From contig JBBISH010000135.1 in NCBI GenBank assembly GCA_037441385.1, positions 1-16,049 of the forward strand: a DNA stretch of 16,049 nucleotides, written 5' to 3'. Origin of the DNA: Myxococcales bacterium (lineage in GTDB: Bacteria; Myxococcota_A; UBA9042). The notes beneath the pieces were generated by a model. It did not search any database and had not been told where the DNA came from. It saw nothing but the letters and a program-made list of their open reading frames with translations. Below are positions 4,058 through 13,667 of the stretch, piece by piece. How positions within the stretch are numbered: the stretch's first letter is position 1; the number at the start of each line of letters is the position of its first letter. Both the position numbers and the translations under genes were made by a program.

Positions 4058-4154
4058 CGGCACCCACTGCTCGCCGTGAACGTGCATGACCCGCAGGTGA
4101 CGCGCCGCGCTCGCGACCAACCGTAGTTCCTTTGCGCCCATGCTACTTTGTGTC

Positions 4155-4210
4155 GCGTGTCATCCGCGGTTCAGTTCGCCCTGGATCGCGGGTTGCACCG
4201 CGGAGCACGC
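4155..4210 (+). promoter_or_regulatory. Long stem-loop covering the ribosome-binding site of the sensor kinase
   Basis: GCGTGT pairs with GCACGC, TCCGCGGT with ACCGCGGA, and CAGTTCGC with GCGGGTTG (with G-U pairs). GGAG at 4202-4205 lies in the 3' arm and ATG 4211 follows immediately. Confidence 0.35.
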
Positions 4211-6529
4211 ATGGCGACAGCGGAATTCGGTCCGCGCCCGTGGCAGTCCAGCCTGTACGCCCGGGCCGCGCTATTCCTGGCCTTGGGCGCTGCCAGCTTT
4301 GTCGGCGCGATCGTGGTCTTGTCCGGCGCCACCGTGGAAGAAAGCGTCGACCGCTTGCTGAGTGAGCGCTTGGAGCTGGCGCGCACGGTGGGCGCTTTTG
4401 TGGAAGCCCGGCTTTTGGGCGACCTGGACCGCCTGTGCGGGGTGGCCGCCAGTCCCACAGCATCGGCAGAAACCCTTGCAACTGCACTGGCTTCTGAGCG
4501 AGCCGCCGGTGGCTACAACTTGGGTGCCGTGGCATTGGACCCGCGCGGCGAACCCGTGGCCGAACTGCCGCCGCCTAGCGGCGTGCCGCTCCGCGATTTT
4601 CGGTTGCGCATGCTGGCGGCCAAGGCCAGTCACCAACCGCGTGGGCGGGCGGTGTCGCAGGTGCTGCTGGTCGGCGAGCCGCCGCGGCCGGCGTTGGCAG
4701 TCGTGCGCAAGCTGGATGCGCCGTCGGGTTCGGTCCATTTTGTGGCCGGCCTGCTGTCCTTGGACCGCGGCGACGTGTTGGGTCCGCTGCTGCGCGACCA
4801 TGCCAAGCCGGACACGGTCATCGATCTGGTGGATAGTCATGGAGTTGTGGCCGCCAGTACGGCGCCGGGCCGACTCGCGCTCCCCGGGGACCACGGCGAC
4901 GTGTTGGCGCGGGCCATTGCCGAGCAGCGGGGCCTGCGCGGTCGCTGCCACGGCTGCCACGGCGACCCCCGCGCTGTGACCCAGGCTCGCGTGCAAAATG
5001 TGTTGGCGTTTTCGTCGCTTCCCACGCTTGCCCTGGGCATCGCGGTGCTGCAGCCCGAGCGCGATGCTCTGGCGCCGGCGTTTGCCCTGCAGCGGCGGCT
5101 GTTGGGGCTGGGGGCGTCGTTTGTCGCTCTTTTCCTGATCTTTGCGGGTCTGTCCGTGCGAAGCGTGGTCGATCCGGTCAAGCGCCTGACCCGGGCCATG
5201 CGGCAGCTGGACAGCGACGGCAGCCAGGTCAGCCTGCCGACGCTGGGGCGCGACGAAGTGGGGGAGCTTGCGTCGACCTTGGCGCGCTGGCACACCAGGA
5301 TGCGCGAGTCCTTGCAGCGCGCCGAAGAAAGTCAAGCCGCGCTGCATGCCGAGATGGAGAGCACCCGGCAAATTCTGCAGGCACTGGAGGCGATTGCGGG
5401 GCTGTATACGGCGGGTTTGGAGCTGCCTGGCATCGTCGACCGGGCGTTGGCCAGCTTGCGCGACGTGCTGGGCTACCCCTGTGGCGGGCTGCAACTGCGG
5501 CTGGCGGCCACCACGGCGCGGGCCTTGCATGGGGTGGAACCGGAGCAGTGGGAGGAACTGGTGCAGGGGCCGCTGGCCCAATTGCCGGCCGGGCCGCCGG
5601 AGCGAGCGTCCGAGCCGCGCTTTGATTCCACGGGCACCCTGTTGGTGCTTCCCCTGGACTATCAGGTCACTACGCGGTTTGGGGTGGTTGGCCGGCACAG
5701 CGTCCCTGGCGGCGTGTCGGTCGAGTTCGCGCTGCTGGGCCGCGCGCAGGCGGCGGCCAGTCAGAACCGCTGGCTGGCCAGCTTGGTCCACCACATCGGG
5801 ATCGCGGCGACCACGCGGATCCTGCATGACCGCGAGGCGCAGCACACTCGACAGCAAGAGCGCTTGCTGCATCAGGTGTTGCGTGCCCAAGAAGACGAGC
5901 GTCGGCGCATCGCCCGCGACCTGCACGACACGGTGGCCCAGGATTTGGCGGCGCTGCGCCTGCAGCTCGAGCGCCTGACCCTGCGCGCCGACGCCGAGCC
6001 GCTGCGGCAAGCGCTGACCGGCGTGGAACAGCACACGGCCAAGGTGCTGGCGGCAGTGCGGCGCACCCTGTTCGATTTGCGGCTGACCGTGTTGGAAAAT
6101 GTGGGCTTTGTGGCCACGTTGCAGTCGATGCTGGAACGGCTGGAGCGCGATCACGGCGTGCGCGGGCTGTTGGCCGTCCACGGCGCCGAACGCGAGCCCC
6201 CCTACGAAATGGCGGTGGCACTGGTGCGCATCACCCAAGAAGCGCTGCAAAACGTAGTGTTGCATGCCAAGGCCCACTTCGTGTCGTTGACGGTGACGTT
6301 CCGGCCGACGGCGGTGGAGCTGCTGGTCGAGGACGACGGCGAAGGCTTTGATGTGTCGGCCGTGCAGCCTGCGAGCGGCCACGGGTTTGGCACGTTGGGC
6401 ATGCTGGAGCGCGCGCGCCTGGTGGGCGGCGAGCTGCAAGTCGAGTCGACGCCTGGCGAAGGGACCAGCGTCAGCGTCCGCGTCCCGCTTTGGTCTGGCG
6501 AAACCGATACGTCCAAGGAGTTGTCGTGA
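4211..6529 (+). CDS. Membrane sensor histidine kinase (TM - Cache-like periplasmic domain with CxxCH - TM - HAMP - HisKA_3 - HATPase_c)
   Basis: GGAG before ATG 4211; two hydrophobic segments; HAMP (DPVKRLTRAM...GRDEVGELA); H-box QEDERRRIARDLHDTVAQ; N-box QEALQNVVLHA; EDDGEGF, GFGTLGMLERA, GEGT. CHGCH at 4946-4960 lies between the TM segments. Confidence 0.92.
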   Translation: MATAEFGPRPWQSSLYARAALFLALGAASFVGAIVVLSGATVEESVDRLLSERLELARTVGAFVEARLLGDLDRLCGVAASPTASAETLATALASERAAGGYNLGAVALDPRGEPVAELPPPSGVPLRDFRLRMLAAKASHQPRGRAVSQVLLVGEPPRPALAVVRKLDAPSGSVHFVAGLLSLDRGDVLGPLLRDHAKPDTVIDLVDSHGVVAASTAPGRLALPGDHGDVLARAIAEQRGLRGRCHGCHGDPRAVTQARVQNVLAFSSLPTLALGIAVLQPERDALAPAFALQRRLLGLGASFVALFLIFAGLSVRSVVDPVKRLTRAMRQLDSDGSQVSLPTLGRDEVGELASTLARWHTRMRESLQRAEESQAALHAEMESTRQILQALEAIAGLYTAGLELPGIVDRALASLRDVLGYPCGGLQLRLAATTARALHGVEPEQWEELVQGPLAQLPAGPPERASEPRFDSTGTLLVLPLDYQVTTRFGVVGRHSVPGGVSVEFALLGRAQAAASQNRWLASLVHHIGIAATTRILHDREAQHTRQQERLLHQVLRAQEDERRRIARDLHDTVAQDLAALRLQLERLTLRADAEPLRQALTGVEQHTAKVLAAVRRTLFDLRLTVLENVGFVATLQSMLERLERDHGVRGLLAVHGAEREPPYEMAVALVRITQEALQNVVLHAKAHFVSLTVTFRPTAVELLVEDDGEGFDVSAVQPASGHGFGTLGMLERARLVGGELQVESTPGEGTSVSVRVPLWSGETDTSKELS

Positions 6530-6663
6530 TACGAAATCCGTCTGGATCGGCGCGAAAGACGTCGGCAATTCTTCGCAGTCCGAATCGGGGTCCGCACCCG
6601 ATTCTCGCTGGTTGCAGAGCGGGCCAAGGAAACCGCGCAGGCGTGAATCAGGTGGGGTGAACA
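6530..6663 (+). mobile_element. Double-hairpin repeat element (MITE-like), copy 1, 134 bp, flanked by TGA direct repeats
   Basis: Aligns with the reverse complement of 9561-9692 (about 99/134 identities by hand). TGA at 6527-6529 and 6664-6666. Removing the element plus one TGA restores AAGGAG-N5-GTGACTACTCGC. Confidence 0.75.
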
Positions 6664-7319
6664 TGACTACTCGCATCGTGCTGGCCGACGATCACACCGT
6701 ACTGCGCGTGGGCTTGCGCGCCTGGCTGGAAGAGCAGGGTGGGCAGTTCCAGGTGGTGGGCGAAGCGGCCGACGGCGAGCAAGCCATTGCGCTGGTGGAA
6801 CAATTGCGCCCACAGCTGCTCATCCTGGACTTGTCGATGACCGGACTAGGGGGCCTGGAGACCACCTTGGAATTGCGCCATCGCGGCAATCGGGTGCCGA
6901 TCTTGGTGCTCACGCAGTACTCGGAACCCGCTGTGTTGCGTAGGGTCTTGGAGGCGGGGGTCAACGGCTATGTGCTCAAATCGGCGCGCGGGGACGACCT
7001 GCTCTCGGCCGTGCGCGCGGTGGCGGGCGGTGGGACCTGGCTGGATCCGGCGGTGGCGGGCGCGCTGGTCAACCGGGCGCTGGGCCGCGACGAGCCGACG
7101 AGCGACGAAGAAGTGTTCGAGCACCTGACGCCCCGCGAGCGGCAAGTGCTGAAGCTGGTGGCCGAAGGGCTGTCGAACAAAGAGATCGCAGCGGCGATGG
7201 ACGTCGCGGTCAAGACGGTGATGGCCCACCGCGCCAACCTGATGGACAAGCTGAACATCCACAATCACTCCAAGTTGGTGCAACTGGCGATTCGGTTGGG
7301 GCTGGTGCAAGTCGAATAG
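6663..7319 (+). CDS. NarL/FixJ family response regulator (REC + LuxR-type HTH)
   Basis: RIVLADDH, LLILDLSM (phospho-Asp), VLT, GYVLK; HTH region LTPRERQVLKLVAEGLSNKEIAAAMDVAVKTVMAHRANLMDKL. Directly follows a HisKA_3 kinase. Confidence 0.95.
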   Translation: MTTRIVLADDHTVLRVGLRAWLEEQGGQFQVVGEAADGEQAIALVEQLRPQLLILDLSMTGLGGLETTLELRHRGNRVPILVLTQYSEPAVLRRVLEAGVNGYVLKSARGDDLLSAVRAVAGGGTWLDPAVAGALVNRALGRDEPTSDEEVFEHLTPRERQVLKLVAEGLSNKEIAAAMDVAVKTVMAHRANLMDKLNIHNHSKLVQLAIRLGLVQVE

Positions 7320-7493
7320 CGCCGTGGCGACCCGCACTGGAGGGGCACGGTCCGGCCTATGGACAAGTCCGGCGCCGCGGCCCAAATTGGCGCAAACTAG
7401 CCGCTCTAGAGACGCGACCGATTACTGTCCATTTGTTCGGTAGTTGCCCCTTCTGACCGCGTCGCTAGCCCCAAGCAGGGCGCAAGCGCGCGC

Positions 7494-7724
7494 CTACAGG
7501 CCCGACGCCTGGAGCTTGCCGGCGATGGTGCCGTTTGCGGCGAATGGCGCCACCGACTGTACGCGGATCCAGCCTTGGGCGCCCGCGCCGCCGCCCTTGC
7601 CGGCGTTGCCGCCTCCTCCTTCTTGGCCGCCAGAGGAGCCGCCGCCCAAACCGGTGGCGCCGGACCCGCCCGAGCTGAAGACCGAGCCCGCCGCGCCGCC
7701 CAGGCCGCCCTTGGCCAACAAACT
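7494..7724 (-). pseudogene. Orphan 3' fragment of a Gly-rich protein gene
   Basis: LLAKGGLGGAAGSVFSSGGSGATGLGGGSSGGQEGGGGNAGKGGGAGAQGWIRVQSVAPFAANGTIAGKLQASGL* looks coding (GGC-rich), has no RBS or credible start, and begins at the edge of the TIR element at 7726. Confidence 0.5.
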
Positions 7725-7761
7725 TCCTGCCTTACCGGATGCCGACAGCGGTCACGGTTCG

Positions 7762-7918
7762 GCCCCCTCACCCGGCCGGCGTTGCCGTCCACCCCCTCCC
7801 GCCCTGGAGACTGTTGCAAAGGTATGTTCGCAGAATTCTGACGCCAATACATTCAATCGGTTGCACGGCGAAAGCACCCGAATTCGACCCTTATGCAACA
7901 ACCTCCCTGGGGAGAGGG
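7762..7918 (+). repeat. REP-like palindromic unit A (CCCCTCACCC...CCTCCC/GGGAGAGGG type), interrupted by a MITE
   Basis: GCCCCCTCACCC at 7762. With 7807-7909 removed it reads CCCCCTCCCGCCCTGGGGAGAGGG, the hairpin of this common extragenic repeat type. Confidence 0.6.
7807..7905. mobile_element. 99 bp MITE with GAGRYTGTTGCA termini and a 4 bp CCTG target-site duplication
   Basis: Left end GAGACTGTTGCAAAGG; right end reverse complement GAGGTTGTTGCATAAGG; CCTG at 7803-7806 and 7906-7909. Interior is visibly more AT-rich than the flanks. Confidence 0.75.
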
Positions 7919-7922
7919 TTTG

Positions 7923-7938
7923 TATTGATAAATCAATA
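7923..7938. promoter_or_regulatory. AT-rich palindrome TATTGAT-AA-ATCAATA between the two REP-like units
   Basis: Perfect 7 bp arms with a 2 bp spacer; function unknown. Confidence 0.3.
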
Positions 7939-7942
7939 GTTG

Positions 7943-8053
7943 CCCATCTCCCCGCTGGCGGGAGAGGTGGGGTCCCCGCGGTGAGCGAAGCGAACGAGTG
8001 GCGCCAGCGGCGCCGGGAGAGCGGGGCGGCCGCGTCAGCGGCGGGGTGAGGGC
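7943..8053 (-). repeat. REP-like palindromic unit B, inverted relative to unit A, with an internal extra hairpin
   Basis: CCCATCTCCCCGCTGGCGGGAGAGGTGGG hairpin at 7943-7971 and GGGGTGAGGGC end at 8043-8053 mirror unit A. Interior holds a CCCCGC...GCGGGG stem containing GAGCGAAGCGA. Confidence 0.55.
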
Positions 8054-8300
8054 TCATGCGGCCAACGTCATACAAATACTGTGTATTCTTGGCACTGTCG
8101 CTAACCGGTAAGGCAGGGAAACCAGCGGCCGCGTGCGCAGGAGAACGAGTCGTGCATGGCTTGCCTCGCGCCGCAAGCATAGAGGTTCAGTGCGAAACCG
8201 CAACGGGCCGACCGAGGGTCAGACCGGAGGCCACGCGCCGTGCGTCGGAGGCACTGGGGAGGCGTGGGGTCCCATTCGCCGCTCTTGACGCCAGCCGGGC

Positions 8301-8315
8301 CGGCGCGCACCTTGC
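8301..8315 (+). promoter_or_regulatory. Possible sigma54 -24/-12 promoter upstream of the OmpA-domain gene
   Basis: CGGCGCG-CACC-TTGC has the GG-N10-GC spacing, with two mismatches to TGGCACG-N4-TTGC. Confidence 0.25.
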
Positions 8316-8360
8316 CAACTGCACGGCGGCAGGCGACCTGCACTGACCATGGGGGAAACG

Positions 8361-8873
8361 ATGCGTAAGGAGTTCTTGTTCGCGGCTCTGGCCGCCGTCT
8401 TCGGTGGCTCCATCGGTCTGGCCAACGCCGACATCGCGGTCCCCAGGCCCACTTACCAGCTGGACGGCAATCGCTTGATTCTGCCTGGTCCGATCGTGTT
8501 CAAGACCGGAACGGCCGAATTGTCAAGCGAAAGCAATACGGTGCTGCAGTAAGTCGCCAGCTACATGGCCGACAAGACCTACATCTCGCTGCTGCGCATC
8601 GAGGGGCACAGCGACAACCAAGGCGACACGCAGCTGTTGACCGAGAAGCGGGCGCTGGCCGTGGCGAAAGCCTTGGCCGGCAAGGGAGTTGCCTGTGCGC
8701 GGCTGCTCCCGGTGGGCTTTGGCTCCAGCAAGCCGGTGGCCGACAACGCGACCGCAGACGGGCGCGCGAAGAATCGGCGCATCGAGGCCGTGAACGCGCA
8801 ACTGCGCGGGCGTCCGATTGGCGGTATGCCGGTGGATGGCGGGGGCAAAGTCGCCGGCGACCCGTGCAAGTAG
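8361..8873 (+). pseudogene. Secreted OmpA C-terminal (peptidoglycan-binding) domain protein with one in-frame TAA at 8550-8552
   Basis: ORFs 8349-8552 and 8565-8873 share a frame and join into signal peptide + IVFKTGTAELSSESNTVLQ*VASYM...RIEGHSDNQG...RALAVAKAL...GFGSSKPVADNATADGRAKNRRIE. Confidence 0.85.
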
Positions 8874-8974
8874 CCGCAGTGGGTCGATTCGGCCGCGTTT
8901 GCCCCCGCACCCTGGGCCGCGCCTGGCTCGCCGATCGCTGGTCGGAGCGGGCCAAGCGGCACACAATGTAGGGA

Positions 8975-9358
8975 CTATCCCCCCGAATCTGCAGCGCTGG
9001 CGTCTTGCGCCGGGTCCACCGCATCGGCTTGCGAGACGTCGGCCGCCGGCTCCACGGCGTCGCTTGGGCTGGCATCGGCCGCCGGTTCTACCGCGTCGGC
9101 TGCAGCATCCTGGGCGGGTTGGGCGTCAGCCGTGGCACTGGCATCGGCCGGGTTCGCCACGGCGTCGCTTGCGGCCGTGTCGCTGGCCGTGGCGTCGGTA
9201 GCTGTGGCGTCGGCCGGAGCGGCGGCCGCATCCGAGGCATCGGATTTGGCATCTGCCGTGTGGTCGTCGTCATGGCGCTTGTCGGCATCGCAGGCGGCCA
9301 GCGTCGCGGTGCAAGCCACGGCCAGTGCCGTCGCCCAGAGGGTCCTATACAACTTCAT
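8975..9358 (-). CDS. Small acidic Asp/Ala-rich lipoprotein (127 aa), low complexity
   Basis: AGGAG RBS before ATG 9358; signal MKLYRTLWATALAVACTATLAAC with lipobox LAAC; remainder is DA-rich repeats. Confidence 0.8.
   Translation of the reverse strand: MKLYRTLWATALAVACTATLAACDADKRHDDDHTADAKSDASDAAAAPADATATDATASDTAASDAVANPADASATADAQPAQDAAADAVEPAADASPSDAVEPAADVSQADAVDPAQDASAADSGG
8990..9097 (-). repeat. Three imperfect 36 bp (12 aa) tandem repeats within the lipoprotein
   Basis: DAVEPAADASPS / DAVEPAADVSQA / DAVDPAQDASAA. Confidence 0.75.
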
Positions 9359-9560
9359 GGTGCTCCTACATGGGACAGCTTTGCGCTGCCCTTGGTGTTT
9401 TGGGCCCAACCGCGGGCCCTGATCCACCGTATCAACCGGCCCGCGACGCCACCAAAAGCGGGCACGGCCGGCATGACATTTGCGTCATGCTGGGTGCCGG
9501 TCCCGCAGTCTTCGTTTGGCGTGACGCAACGCAGCACACCGTCGCGGGGCACCCCACTCA

Positions 9561-9692
9561 TACGAACCCCACCTGATTCGCGCCTGTACGGTTTCTGTGA
9601 CCCGTTTGGCAACTGGCGAGAATCAGGCGGGGACCCCGGTTCAGGCCCGAAGAATTGCCCGAGCTTTCGATCCGATTCGGACGGAACCGGTA
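9561..9692 (-). mobile_element. Double-hairpin repeat element (MITE-like), copy 2, 132 bp, flanked by TGA direct repeats on the minus strand
   Basis: TCA at 9558-9560 and 9693-9695; ends TAC...GTA; shares blocks GGCAATTCTTCG, CGGGGTCC, GATTCTCGC, GAAACCG and GAATCAGGTGGGGT with copy 1. Confidence 0.75.
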
Positions 9693-9824
9693 TCAAATGC
9701 AGCCGCCGCCAGAGAGCGGATCAATTGAGACCTTCTCCGCGCGTCCGAGCCCTTGAACCCGAAGTCCGTTCAGGGCTGGAGACACTGGATGGTTGGTAGT
9801 ACAAGCCCTTTTTGGAGTTGCGCG

Positions 9825-12800
9825 CTAGGTCGAGTGGCCGTCGCCGGCCGTCAGCTGCGGCACTTGCTCGGTAGCGGCTCGCAGCAACCCCAGCGCCCCG
9901 CTGAAGTCGAATTGCTGAATCTGCTGCTCGATGCCTTGGGCTGCCGAACCCAAGGCCGCGCGAAGCAAGACGCTGTTTTCGGCAAACAAAGTGCCCGCCC
10001 AGACGTCGTCGGCGACCAAGTAGGCCTCCAGCGTCCGCACCAGGTAGCCGGCAAGCGCCCAGTCGACGGCTTGCGGCGGCGTCGCTTCGGGCTCGGCAGG
10101 GGGCAAGGCGGTCCGCAGATCGGCCGCCAGCTCGGCCAAGGCCAGGTCCACGCTTGCGAATTGCTCTTCTAGATTTGGGGGTTCCTGGTCCGCGGCGCGC
10201 AGAGCCACCTCCAATTTCGCTGCGGCCTCGCGCAACGGCAAGGCGCCGATCGTCCCGGCGATGCCCTTGAGCGTGTGGGCCGTGCGCTGGGCGTCGGCAA
10301 ACTTTCGCGACTCGACTTGCCGACGGATCCGCAGCAGGTCGTCGCTGTGATCGCTCACGAATCGGTGCAAGAGCCGTTCGTAGGCCGGCCATTGGCCTTG
10401 GACCACGTGCAGCCCGGCGTCGCAATCCAGCCCGCGGACGGCCCGCAAACCTTGGCTGTGATCGGGGTGCACTTCGGGCTGGGGCAGCGCGCAGGCAAAC
10501 GGCCCGGTCGGCGTTGCCAGTCCCCGCAATTTGCGCGTCCAGCGGCGCACGGCCGCGAACATGCGATCGGGATCGACGGGCTTACCGATGAAGTCGTTCA
10601 TGCCCGCGTCCAGACATTGGCGCCGGTCCTCTTCGAACGCGTTGGCGGTCATGGCCAGGATCGGCGTTGCGGCGTAGCCGGGCAGGGCCCGCAGCTGCCG
10701 AGTGGCCTGCAAGCCGTCGACGACCGGCATCTGCAAGTCCATCAAGACCAGGTCGTACCGAGTCATTTGCGCGAGCTCTACGGCCGCGGCGCCGTCGCTG
10801 GCCAGATCCACCTTGTGCCCTGCCGACTCCAGCAGCTCCTTGGCCACTTCTTGATTGATCTCGTCGTCTTCGGCGACCAGGATATGCAGCGGCAGCGCGG
10901 TCGCTGGGATTTGCACGCTGGGACTCTGCGCCGACGCCTGGGGGATCAGGCACTTGGCAAAGGGCACCTCGAACCAGAACGAACTGCCCTGACCGGGCGT
11001 GCTCTGCATGTCCAAGTGGCCACCCATCAACTCGACCAGGCGGCGGCTGATGGCCAAACCCAAGCCAGTCCCGCCAAAGCGCCGCGACATCGACGCGTCC
11101 GCTTGTTCGAACGGCTGAAACAGCGACGCCCGCTGTTCCGCGTCGATCCCGATGCCTGTGTCGCTTACTTCGAACCGCAGGCGCAGCATCCCGTCGGCCG
11201 TCGCCGGTAACGGCCGCACTTTCAGCGCCACCGCGCCCTGCTGGGTGAACTTGACGGCGTTACCCCCCAGATTGATAAGGATTTGCCGCAGCCGCAGCGG
11301 ATCGCCGCGCAGCATGGCCGGTACACCCTCGTCCACGGACCGGGTGACGACCAGGCCCTTTTCGTCGGCGCGGGCGCGCAGGATATCGCACACGTCGCGG
11401 ACCACGGCCGCAAGCTCAAAGTCCACCGACTCCACCGCCATGCGGCCGGCCTCGATCTTGGACAGGTCCAAGATGCTATCGATGAGCGTGAGCAAATGCC
11501 GCGCAGAAACAGCAACTTTGTCAAGTCGGGTCGACTGCTCCGGCGTGGGCTGCTGCTGCCGCATCAAGTAGGTCAGGCCCAAGATAGCGTTCATGGGCGT
11601 GCGGATTTCGTGGCTCATGTTCGCCAAGAAGGCGCTTTTGGCCCGGTTGGCGTCTTCGGCGCGGGCGCGGGCCTCGGCCAACTCGGCGGTCCGCTGTTTG
11701 ACGAGCTCTTCCAGGTGCCGGCGATAGCTGTCCAACTCTTCGCCCATGCGTTTCTTTTCGGTGATGTCGTCCTTCAAGCCCAGGTAGTGGGTCACCTTGC
11801 CGTCGGTTGTGCGAATGGGCGAGACAAATGCAAATTCTGTGTAAATCTCGCCATTTTTGCGCCGATTGATGAACTGGCCCTTCCAGGCCTCGCCGCGGCC
11901 CAGCGCGTCCCACATCGAGGTGTACGTCTCTGGCGGCGTCAGCCCGGACCGCAAGAGTGCCGGCGTGGCCCCGATCAACTCGTCGCGGCCGTAGCCCGAA
12001 ACGCGGCACGTGGCGTCGTTGACATACTCGATGCGGCAGGCCAGGTCGGTGATTAGGATGCTCTCTGGGCTTTGCTCCACGGCCAGCGAGAGCTTGCGGA
12101 TCTCGGCATCGCGCCGCAGCCGGTCGCGAATGTCGCGGATGAGGACGCTGGCCAGCCTTTTGCCGTCCATTCCCTCAAAGACCGCAGACGACACCTCGGT
12201 TGGGATGCGGTGCCCATCGGCGTGAATGAAGTCGAGTTCGCCGCGCACATGGCCGTGCTGTGCCCGTTTCTTGAGTAGAGCTACCAAGTTGGCGTCGCTG
12301 GCGTCCAAGATGCCAGCGCGGCCGACGCGCAAGATGTCCTCTTCGCTGCGTCCCAGCAGCGCGCACGCCGCCGGGTTGACCAGCAGAATCCCGCCGCTGT
12401 CCTCGACCGGCGCGTCCGGGTCGGTGATCATGATGCCGTCGATCGAACTTTCCAGCAGTTGCCGCAACAAGGCGGCGTTGCTCGCCAGCGCTTGCTCGGT
12501 GCGGCGGCGTTCGGCTTCGCGGGCAAAACCATCCAAGGCAAAGCTGATGTCGGAAGCCATATCGCAAAGCAGGACACGGACTTCCTCGCCGAGCAGGTCG
12601 GGGGAGCGCATATACAGCGTGAGCGCGCCAACGGGTTCGCCGCCCCGGCGCAAGGGCAGGGCCGCTGACGAGCTCCAGCCAAATCGCTCGCCGCGCTTTT
12701 GCCACATGGCCGTGCGCGGGTCGCGGGCAAAATCATGGCACCAATAAGGCTGGCGCTCGCGGATGGCACTTCCCGTTGGCCCTTCACTGCTGGGGTCTCC

Positions 12801-13454
12801 TGGAATTGCAGTGATGTGAATGCCTTCCAGGTAGGCTTGCCCGGCTCCAGCGGCGGCCACCGGCCGCACGCGGCCTTCTGCGTCGACCATCCCCACCCAG
12901 GCCAAGTCGATGCCCTGGACTTGGACCGCGGCTTGACAGACCGCCGCAAACAGGTCGGCCTCGCAGGTCGAGCGCACGATGGCCTCGTTGCACATACTCA
13001 GGGCCGCGTAGTACTGGCCAAGGGTGGTCAGCTTGGCCTCGGTCCGGCGTTGCTCGGTCACGTCGCGCGCGATCACCACCGCGAGTGCCGTCCCGTCTGC
13101 AGCTATGAACTCTTGCGAGTGGACCTCGGCCGGGAAGGCGGTGCCGTCGCCCCGGCGAACCATCATTTCGGACCGCGCCTGGCCGTCTTCCTGCCGCGCT
13201 TCAAGGTGAAGTCGCAATTCCGGTGCATCGGAGTCGACCAAAGCGGCCCGGCCGGCGGCGCACAACTCCGCCTCGGTCATGCGCAACAGCTTGCACGCGG
13301 CGGGGTTGGCGGCCAAGATGCGACCGTCTCGCGTCGCCAACAGCCCCGCGTCGGCGCTGTGCTCAAAGAAGGCACGGTGGAAGAACTCGGCCGCACTGGA
13401 TTCCACAGACCACTCCACGACCAGACGCTGCTGGACCGATCGGGCGGCTGTCAT
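9825..13454 (-). CDS. Cytoplasmic hybrid sensor histidine kinase (PAS-GAF-PAS-PAS-HisKA-HATPase_c-REC-HPt)
   Basis: PAS motifs (ANPAAC...RDVTE; VNPAAC...RDIRD; YVNDA...DDITE); GAF (LAWVG...SSAALPL); H-box FLANMSHEIRTPMN; QILINLGGNAVKFT; DTGIG; GGTGLGL; REC (AEDD, LMDLQMP, MTAN, KP); HPt AHTLKG. No TM segment seen. Start uncertain. Confidence 0.93.
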   Translation of the reverse strand: MTAARSVQQRLVVEWSVESSAAEFFHRAFFEHSADAGLLATRDGRILAANPAACKLLRMTEAELCAAGRAALVDSDAPELRLHLEARQEDGQARSEMMVRRGDGTAFPAEVHSQEFIAADGTALAVVIARDVTEQRRTEAKLTTLGQYYAALSMCNEAIVRSTCEADLFAAVCQAAVQVQGIDLAWVGMVDAEGRVRPVAAAGAGQAYLEGIHITAIPGDPSSEGPTGSAIRERQPYWCHDFARDPRTAMWQKRGERFGWSSSAALPLRRGGEPVGALTLYMRSPDLLGEEVRVLLCDMASDISFALDGFAREAERRRTEQALASNAALLRQLLESSIDGIMITDPDAPVEDSGGILLVNPAACALLGRSEEDILRVGRAGILDASDANLVALLKKRAQHGHVRGELDFIHADGHRIPTEVSSAVFEGMDGKRLASVLIRDIRDRLRRDAEIRKLSLAVEQSPESILITDLACRIEYVNDATCRVSGYGRDELIGATPALLRSGLTPPETYTSMWDALGRGEAWKGQFINRRKNGEIYTEFAFVSPIRTTDGKVTHYLGLKDDITEKKRMGEELDSYRRHLEELVKQRTAELAEARARAEDANRAKSAFLANMSHEIRTPMNAILGLTYLMRQQQPTPEQSTRLDKVAVSARHLLTLIDSILDLSKIEAGRMAVESVDFELAAVVRDVCDILRARADEKGLVVTRSVDEGVPAMLRGDPLRLRQILINLGGNAVKFTQQGAVALKVRPLPATADGMLRLRFEVSDTGIGIDAEQRASLFQPFEQADASMSRRFGGTGLGLAISRRLVELMGGHLDMQSTPGQGSSFWFEVPFAKCLIPQASAQSPSVQIPATALPLHILVAEDDEINQEVAKELLESAGHKVDLASDGAAAVELAQMTRYDLVLMDLQMPVVDGLQATRQLRALPGYAATPILAMTANAFEEDRRQCLDAGMNDFIGKPVDPDRMFAAVRRWTRKLRGLATPTGPFACALPQPEVHPDHSQGLRAVRGLDCDAGLHVVQGQWPAYERLLHRFVSDHSDDLLRIRRQVESRKFADAQRTAHTLKGIAGTIGALPLREAAAKLEVALRAADQEPPNLEEQFASVDLALAELAADLRTALPPAEPEATPPQAVDWALAGYLVRTLEAYLVADDVWAGTLFAENSVLLRAALGSAAQGIEQQIQQFDFSGALGLLRAATEQVPQLTAGDGHST

Positions 13455-13667
13455 GTCCGCAGTGCCGCAGCGATGAACGCATTGCGCTCGCGGACCCACA
13501 GGCTCGCTCGGCCAGGCCGCTAGGTTCTTTGACTTTGCGCCTGCGGGCGCAGTTGGTCAAGCGCTCGGCACTGGGGCGGCTTGGGCCGGCAACTGCGCTG
13601 TGTGCCTGGACTCTTGTGCTCGCGCTGGCCGCCGGCTGGGCCTCGTGGGATCCGCGCCGGCGGGCCT

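Follow-up and report, generated by a model that had tools for sequence, protein, structure and literature searches.

A TNA-duplicating family of miniature mobile elements in a Myxococcales genome, with a right end that resembles a translation start site

The 16,049-nucleotide (nt) contig JBBISH010000135.1 of a Myxococcales bacterium (assembly GCA_037441385.1), referred to below as the window, carries two related copies of a short, hairpin-rich repeat, one on the forward strand at positions 6530-6663 (copy 1, 134 nt) and one on the reverse strand at positions 9561-9692 (copy 2, 132 nt). The locus raises the question of whether such a repeat is a conserved RNA structure, a mobile DNA element or both. 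[quoted passage not shown] The analysis presented here upholds the mobile element and finds no support for the conserved RNA. The two copies very probably belong to a family of non-autonomous transposable elements that reside between genes, duplicate a TNA target (N, any base), carry a right end from which an AGGTG-N8-ATG start site is formed and are mobilized in trans by a DDE transposase. The basic description of the two copies is accurate with respect to coordinates, strands and flanking TGA triplets, which lie at 6527-6529 and 6664-6666 for copy 1 and, read on the reverse strand, at 9695-9693 and 9560-9558 for copy 2. Aligned globally, the copies of 134 and 132 nt agree at 101 positions (~75%, against ~74% by the earlier hand count), and the left end of copy 1 matches the inverted right end of copy 2 at 8 of 10 positions, as had been claimed.

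Both copies are members of a large family. The draft genome that contains the window as contig C135 (G000) comprises 6.63 Mb in 221 contigs, with 66.9% G+C content. An initial similarity search of this genome listed 44 matches among 275 candidates, and genomic copies resemble copy 1 with E-values as low as 1e-30, a similarity far above chance. Searching the genome with blastn yields 374 loci. A family profile with a 132-nt model was built from 212 copies, and nhmmer with this profile (E<=1e-3) identifies 435 matches, including 234 that are full length at 132 nt; together they occupy 0.74% of the genome. Full copies have a median of 91% identity with the consensus. The 132-nt consensus has no coding capacity, begins and ends with TAC...GTA and contains two internal hairpins, and two subfamilies are distinguished near the right tip by AGGTGGGG versus AGACGGGG. 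Copy 2 agrees with the family consensus at 93% identity and scores 157.2 bits with a covariance model (R1) of the family. Copy 1 is old and diverged, with a decayed right tip, and is recognized by the same model at 94.4 bits (E 1.9e-18).

The flanks of the copies record a target-site duplication. Among the 228 full copies with flanks, at least one TNA triplet adjoins 201, and TNA is present on both sides of 122. In 110 of these 122 pairs the two triplets agree in their middle base, compared with 33% expected by chance. Identical flank pairs comprise TCA (49), TGA (39), TAA (12) and TTA (10), so TSA (S, G or C) prevails among the duplicated triplets of this GC-rich genome, and the wider target consensus is weak (S-TNA-S). 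The proposal that the repeat sits at TGA triplets is therefore correct in that the 3-bp duplication is genuine and is TGA at both window copies, but the target is TNA in general.

Comparison with related genomes reveals the sites as they are when the element is absent. The kinase-regulator junction that holds copy 1 was located in four other genomes of the genus (G007, G005, G009 and G001), and the element is missing from this junction in all of them. Two of the junctions were read base by base. In both, kinase stop and regulator start codons overlap, as GTGA in G007 and as ATGA in G005, with a single TGA in each; the G007 flanks match those of the window on both sides. The window locus consists of the shared left flank, TGA, the element, TGA and the shared right flank. 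A second locus (G000 C30:33892-34022) likewise holds the element in G000, while the corresponding site of G005 is empty and has a single TGA. A third attempt, at a locus on contig C194 of G000, found no orthologue. The copy 2 site has no clean empty counterpart in G007, because G007 there holds a different, decayed and oppositely oriented copy. This G007 copy (C506, 405-520) lies at a different position behind the gene orthologous to the hybrid kinase gene of the window and represents a separate insertion into that intergenic region. Hundreds of copies, a target duplication and sites that are empty in sister genomes thus bear out the MITE-like character proposed for the family.

The copies are found almost exclusively between genes and in either orientation. 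Gene calls for this comparison were made with our own crude caller, which is based on G+C content at third codon positions (GC3) and predicts 3685 open reading frames (ORFs), so the context counts are approximate. Just 10 of the 435 matches are located deeper than 200 nt within a called ORF, though called ORFs cover 76% of the genome. Copies between co-directional genes are in the sense orientation in 59 cases and antisense in 51, and a further 62 copies have convergent genes on their two sides and 32 have divergent ones. The duplicated triplet coincides with the stop codon of an adjacent gene in 48 of 307 elements examined, 24 in each orientation. The family accordingly has no strand bias relative to genes.

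One property of the family bears on neighboring genes. The right end reads AGGTG followed by 8 nt and a terminal A. Together with a duplicated TGA, this end forms the junction AGGTG-N8-ATG-A. At copy 1, the Shine-Dalgarno-like AGGTG (6650-6654, forward strand) stands 8 nt ahead of the ATG at 6663-6665, which is composed of the element's last base, A at 6663, and the first two bases of the right TGA duplication (6664-6666). This ATG is the predicted start codon of the response-regulator gene. The orthologues of the regulator share this start position (GTG in G007, ATG in G005) as well as the initial residues, and their own AAGGAG site falls within sequence that now flanks copy 1 on the left. 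The junction ATG of copy 2, formed with the element's last base at 9561 and the right TGA duplication (9558-9560, reverse strand), opens a short frame only.

The same arrangement recurs across the genome. Of 68 right-end TGA junctions, 16 have an ATG at which a high-GC3 ORF with a minimum length of 80 codons begins exactly, compared with a background of ~6% in other frames and triplets (binomial p 4.7e-6). Left ends open such an ORF in 8 of 79 cases (right versus left, Fisher p 0.04), and the set of 307 elements contains 23 junction starts, 17 at right ends versus 6 at left ends. Among the right ends themselves, such an ORF follows in 14 of 38 with AGGTG and in 3 of 32 without it (Fisher p 0.011). 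Right ends bearing AGGTG are thus enriched at gene starts genome-wide. Operon junctions of the NTGA type are occupied by 5 of the 307 elements, copy 1 included, and at the C30 locus the native ATG survives next to the junction ATG. We read the enrichment as a survival filter, by which insertions into start codons persist where both a ribosome-binding site and an ATG are restored by the element. Under this reading, the AGGTG and ATG carried by the element would be used in translation.

These observations can be assembled into a model of how the family spreads. A transposase supplied in trans would make a staggered 3-bp cut at T-N-A, and insertion of the element would leave the TNA duplicated. 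Copies would then survive almost only between genes, in either orientation. Where the duplicated triplet is TGA, the right end would contribute AGGTG, 8 nt and the terminal A to an AGGTG-N8-ATG junction, which may allow the element to occupy an NTGA stop/start overlap or a start codon with the downstream gene intact. Copy 1 would have done so between the histidine kinase gene and its response-regulator gene. In a stronger form of the model, which we put forward only tentatively, the right end acts as a portable translation-initiation cassette that colonizes NTGA overlaps and start codons, replaces native ribosome-binding sites and uncouples translation within operons such as the kinase-regulator pair, and the left end serves as a landing pad for an insertion sequence (IS) of the IS427 group. 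In either form, copy 1 offers a concrete example of a mobile repeat that sits on the start codon of a gene and appears to leave the gene intact through its own ribosome-binding site and start.

The reading that has to be set against a mobile DNA element is that of a conserved structured RNA, for example a leader, a small RNA or an mRNA-stabilizing module, with two hairpins selected at the RNA level. The position of the copies beside signaling genes makes this reading tempting, and some observations agree with it. Copy 2 folds into two long hairpins at -62.3 kcal/mol, well beyond its shuffles (z -3.8), and one G-C pair in one window copy is exchanged for an A-U pair in the other. In copy 1, the predicted left hairpin (6542-6589) and the predicted long right hairpin (6592-6657; an inverted repeat that is nearly invariant across the family) belong to a fold of -46.2 kcal/mol that is no better than shuffled sequence (z 0.03; 90 of 200 shuffles equally stable or more). 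To examine the family as a whole, the 228 full copies were compared at the 43 pairs of a consensus fold; RNAalifold on the 228 hmmalign rows returned a near-empty structure, and the minimum free energy structures of the consensus and of copy 2 were used instead. Departures from Watson-Crick consensus pairs amount to 376 G-U, 434 A-C and 716 other cells, and 52 cells are changed on both sides. Because G-U and A-C departures are about equally frequent, neither strand is favored. The compensatory change reported in the inner right stem is a genuine exchange of G-C for A-U, but a doubly changed standard pair occurs there in only 3 of the 228 full copies.

Comparison between species gives the same answer. 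The consensus sequences of the G000 copies and the G007 copies are identical at 115 of 132 positions (87%); at the 43 pairs, 33 are unchanged, 9 are broken, 1 is kept by a single change and 0 are compensated. The left hairpin is not preserved between the two consensuses, and the long right stem alone is preserved, because it is invariant. An alignment of 44 rows from the two species has 84.8% paired cells versus 83.9% in shuffles, and 15 of 1630 cells are changed on both sides. The covariation score of this alignment (0.071 versus 0.061 in shuffles) is reached by 0 of 500 shuffles, a difference in favor of structure that related rows can produce without it. A search of Rfam (E<=1) returns no match to either copy, in keeping with the earlier statement that the repeat cannot be assigned to a known family; the sole match in the whole window is a chance mir-2060 hit away from the copies. 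With double changes this rare, with no compensated pair between the species consensuses, with copies unbiased in orientation to genes and with orthologous sites that are empty in relatives, the structured-RNA reading is largely refuted, and we consider it very improbable. The hairpins are part of the DNA element itself and probably represent either what the transposase recognizes or what the element inherited.

The enzyme that moves the family can be approached through its target. A staggered 3-bp cut in which the middle base is free is the mark of a DDE transposase that acts in trans. Its closest bacterial type is presumably the IS5 family, represented in the ISfinder classification by the groups IS1031 and IS427. 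The MITE is thus most likely moved by a DDE transposase of the IS5 kind. The genome contains a resident IS of the IS427 group (IS5 family) with a perfect 13-nt terminal repeat, GAGGGTGTGTACA, and an interior that is unassembled. Its 16 termini, all at contig ends (for example C156:1-190, C174:1-190, C28:57140-57329 and C146:14000-14125), are flanked by TNA in 16 of 16 cases, and relatives of its 57-residue C-terminus carry the Pfam domains PF13340, PF01609 and PF13586. Of these 16 termini, six, each from a different locus, adjoin the duplicated TNA at the left end of a MITE copy and never at the right end. Since there are ~300 MITE left ends among 128,930 TNA sites in the genome, this association is beyond chance. 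The link between the IS and the left end is real, could reflect either a shared enzyme or a preferred landing site and provides a lead on target choice by such elements. That the resident IS is itself the source of the enzyme is nonetheless unlikely, given that the MITE ends bear no resemblance to its terminal repeat and that its exact 13-mer is absent from all 10 further genomes searched in the genus, MITE-rich G007 (81% complete) among them.

The two hairpins near the ends, combined with weak terminal inverted repeats, would also be compatible with a different class of enzyme. The family would in that case be a repeat like REP/REPIN or PATE, which depends on hairpins near its ends instead of terminal inverted repeats and is mobilized by an IS200/IS605/RAYT-type Y1 (HUH) transposase, and G000 has 6 Y1_Tnp matches. 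Y1 transposition is not known to duplicate its target, and insertion takes place next to a single fixed short sequence. The TNA of the present family varies in its middle base and appears in identical form on either side (110 of 122), and its empty sites contain a single TNA; in addition, no Y1 gene was noticed beside the copies, which were not examined systematically for this. Movement by a Y1 enzyme is therefore highly improbable, and transposition by a DDE enzyme with TNA duplication is retained as the preferred account.

Several points weigh against this account or the start-site argument that accompanies it. The terminal inverted repeats are weak, being limited to TAC...GTA and ~9 of 14 bases in one subfamily (counted by eye), with pairing that is partly subterminal. 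A search for a transposase-encoding element with the same ends, which the first-pass annotation had suggested, found no such autonomous element in the draft genome, although repeats are poorly assembled there and this is weak evidence of absence. The only IS seen with TNA flanks has GAGGG... ends rather than the TAC... of the MITE, and the absence of its 13-nt terminal repeat from the MITE-rich G007 counts here as well. The contrast between right ends with and without AGGTG is possibly confounded by differences in age between the subfamilies, and all context counts inherit the approximate gene calls. Pattern searches for the MITE termini near transposase genes and genome-wide returned noise only. 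PF01609 has 2 matches in G000 with no MITE-like ends nearby, and PF13359 (DDE_Tnp_4) and PF13340 have no match in this genome. PF13586 has four weak matches in G000, located at contig ends and none linked to a MITE-ended element; across 37 genomes of the family, it matches in 4, and G007 is not among them.

The distribution of the element is narrow. BLAST detects it in 1 of 40 relatives (G007). Of 36 genomes in the family-level group, the covariance model matches 2, namely G007, which has at least 91 copies, and G001, which has one decayed copy (50.5 bits). In a pattern scan of a wider contig collection, the matches listed (at least 12) all came from one relative, a result with no bearing on wider distribution, and a plasmid collection contains no match to the element.

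Known systems share parts of this picture. Prokaryotic MITEs such as Correia/NEMIS, ERIC/IRU, RUP and Nezha are likewise small, non-coding, dispersed in intergenic regions, rich in hairpins, flanked by target duplications and variable in position between close relatives. No sequence relation to any of them is shown, the duplication of the present element is a 3-bp TNA and its host is GC-rich. Correia and ERIC elements duplicate TA, and the likeness to ERIC/IRU that had been pointed out is one of size and TA-containing ends alone. PIF/Harbinger elements, which are eukaryotic relatives of IS5, produce a 3-bp TNA or TWA duplication; they resemble the family in this respect and differ in being eukaryotic and in the absence of PF13359 matches from G000. 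REP/REPIN-RAYT systems and the PATEs derived from IS200/IS605 are also short, hairpin-rich extragenic repeats, but they are not known to make a target duplication, whereas the element does. Insertion sequences of the IS1031 and IS427 groups and the MITEs derived from them share a short TNA-type duplication with the family, and an IS427-group IS with TNA flanks is present in the same genome; its GAGGGTGTGTACA ends differ from the TAC... of the MITE, and no cognate IS was found. In the part of a Paracoccus survey consulted here (PMC3281130, Table 2), IS427-group elements are 832-865 bp long with 13-21 bp inverted repeats and have direct repeats of 2 bp, in one case 4 bp, compared with 3 bp for the element. 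The sections consulted of a MITE review (PMC10969869) mention no TNA-duplicating bacterial MITE, and the portions of the literature covered contain no description of this family or of any such MITE. The MITE family is thus undescribed and lineage-restricted but of an ordinary kind; what deserves further attention is the start site carried by the element and its association with the IS.

The genes around the two copies encode signaling proteins. Copy 1 is preceded by a histidine kinase gene (4148-6529, forward strand; HAMP, HisKA_3 and HATPase_c by Pfam), whose stop codon is the left TGA duplication at 6527-6529, and is followed by a NarL/LuxR-type response regulator gene (6663-7319, forward strand; Response_reg and GerE by Pfam). 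Copy 2 lies downstream of a hybrid histidine kinase gene (9825-13499, reverse strand; GAF, PAS, HisKA, HATPase_c, REC and Hpt by Pfam) whose 3' end is ~130 nt upstream of the copy, and its left TGA duplication (9693-9695, reverse strand) is not the stop codon of any called gene. The observation that each copy follows a histidine kinase gene in the same orientation is thus borne out, and this placement is a coincidence, because both orientations are equally frequent genome-wide (59 versus 51 between co-directional genes; 24 versus 24 at stop codons). The region between 7400 and 9500 shows little coding signal by the GC3-based caller, and the ORFs tried there (7444-8046 on the forward strand; 7409-7852, 8503-9075 and 8978-9427 on the reverse strand) have no Pfam match.

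Variant forms of the element occur throughout G000. Sixty-one of the nhmmer matches span just the left 45-69 positions (for example C14:56525-56586 and C183:4228-4288), and many of these finish with a normal right tip followed by TNA, which makes them a one-hairpin form of ~66 nt. The right module alone is represented by ~10 matches. Because forms with only the left or only the right module exist, the 132-nt form may be a fusion or insertion derivative. Several other copies are interrupted in the left hairpin region, at slightly varying positions, by another repeat of ~260-290 nt (C64:7459-7721, C50:28414-28701, C64:33755 onward and C68:11703 onward) that looks like a second mobile family nested in the first. 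Finally, back-to-back copies that share one TNA, or full copies that adjoin a partial one, are found at C141:3274-3506, C72:14822-14993, C1:71479-71650 and C22:28701-28930, which suggests that a TNA next to or within existing copies is re-used as a target.

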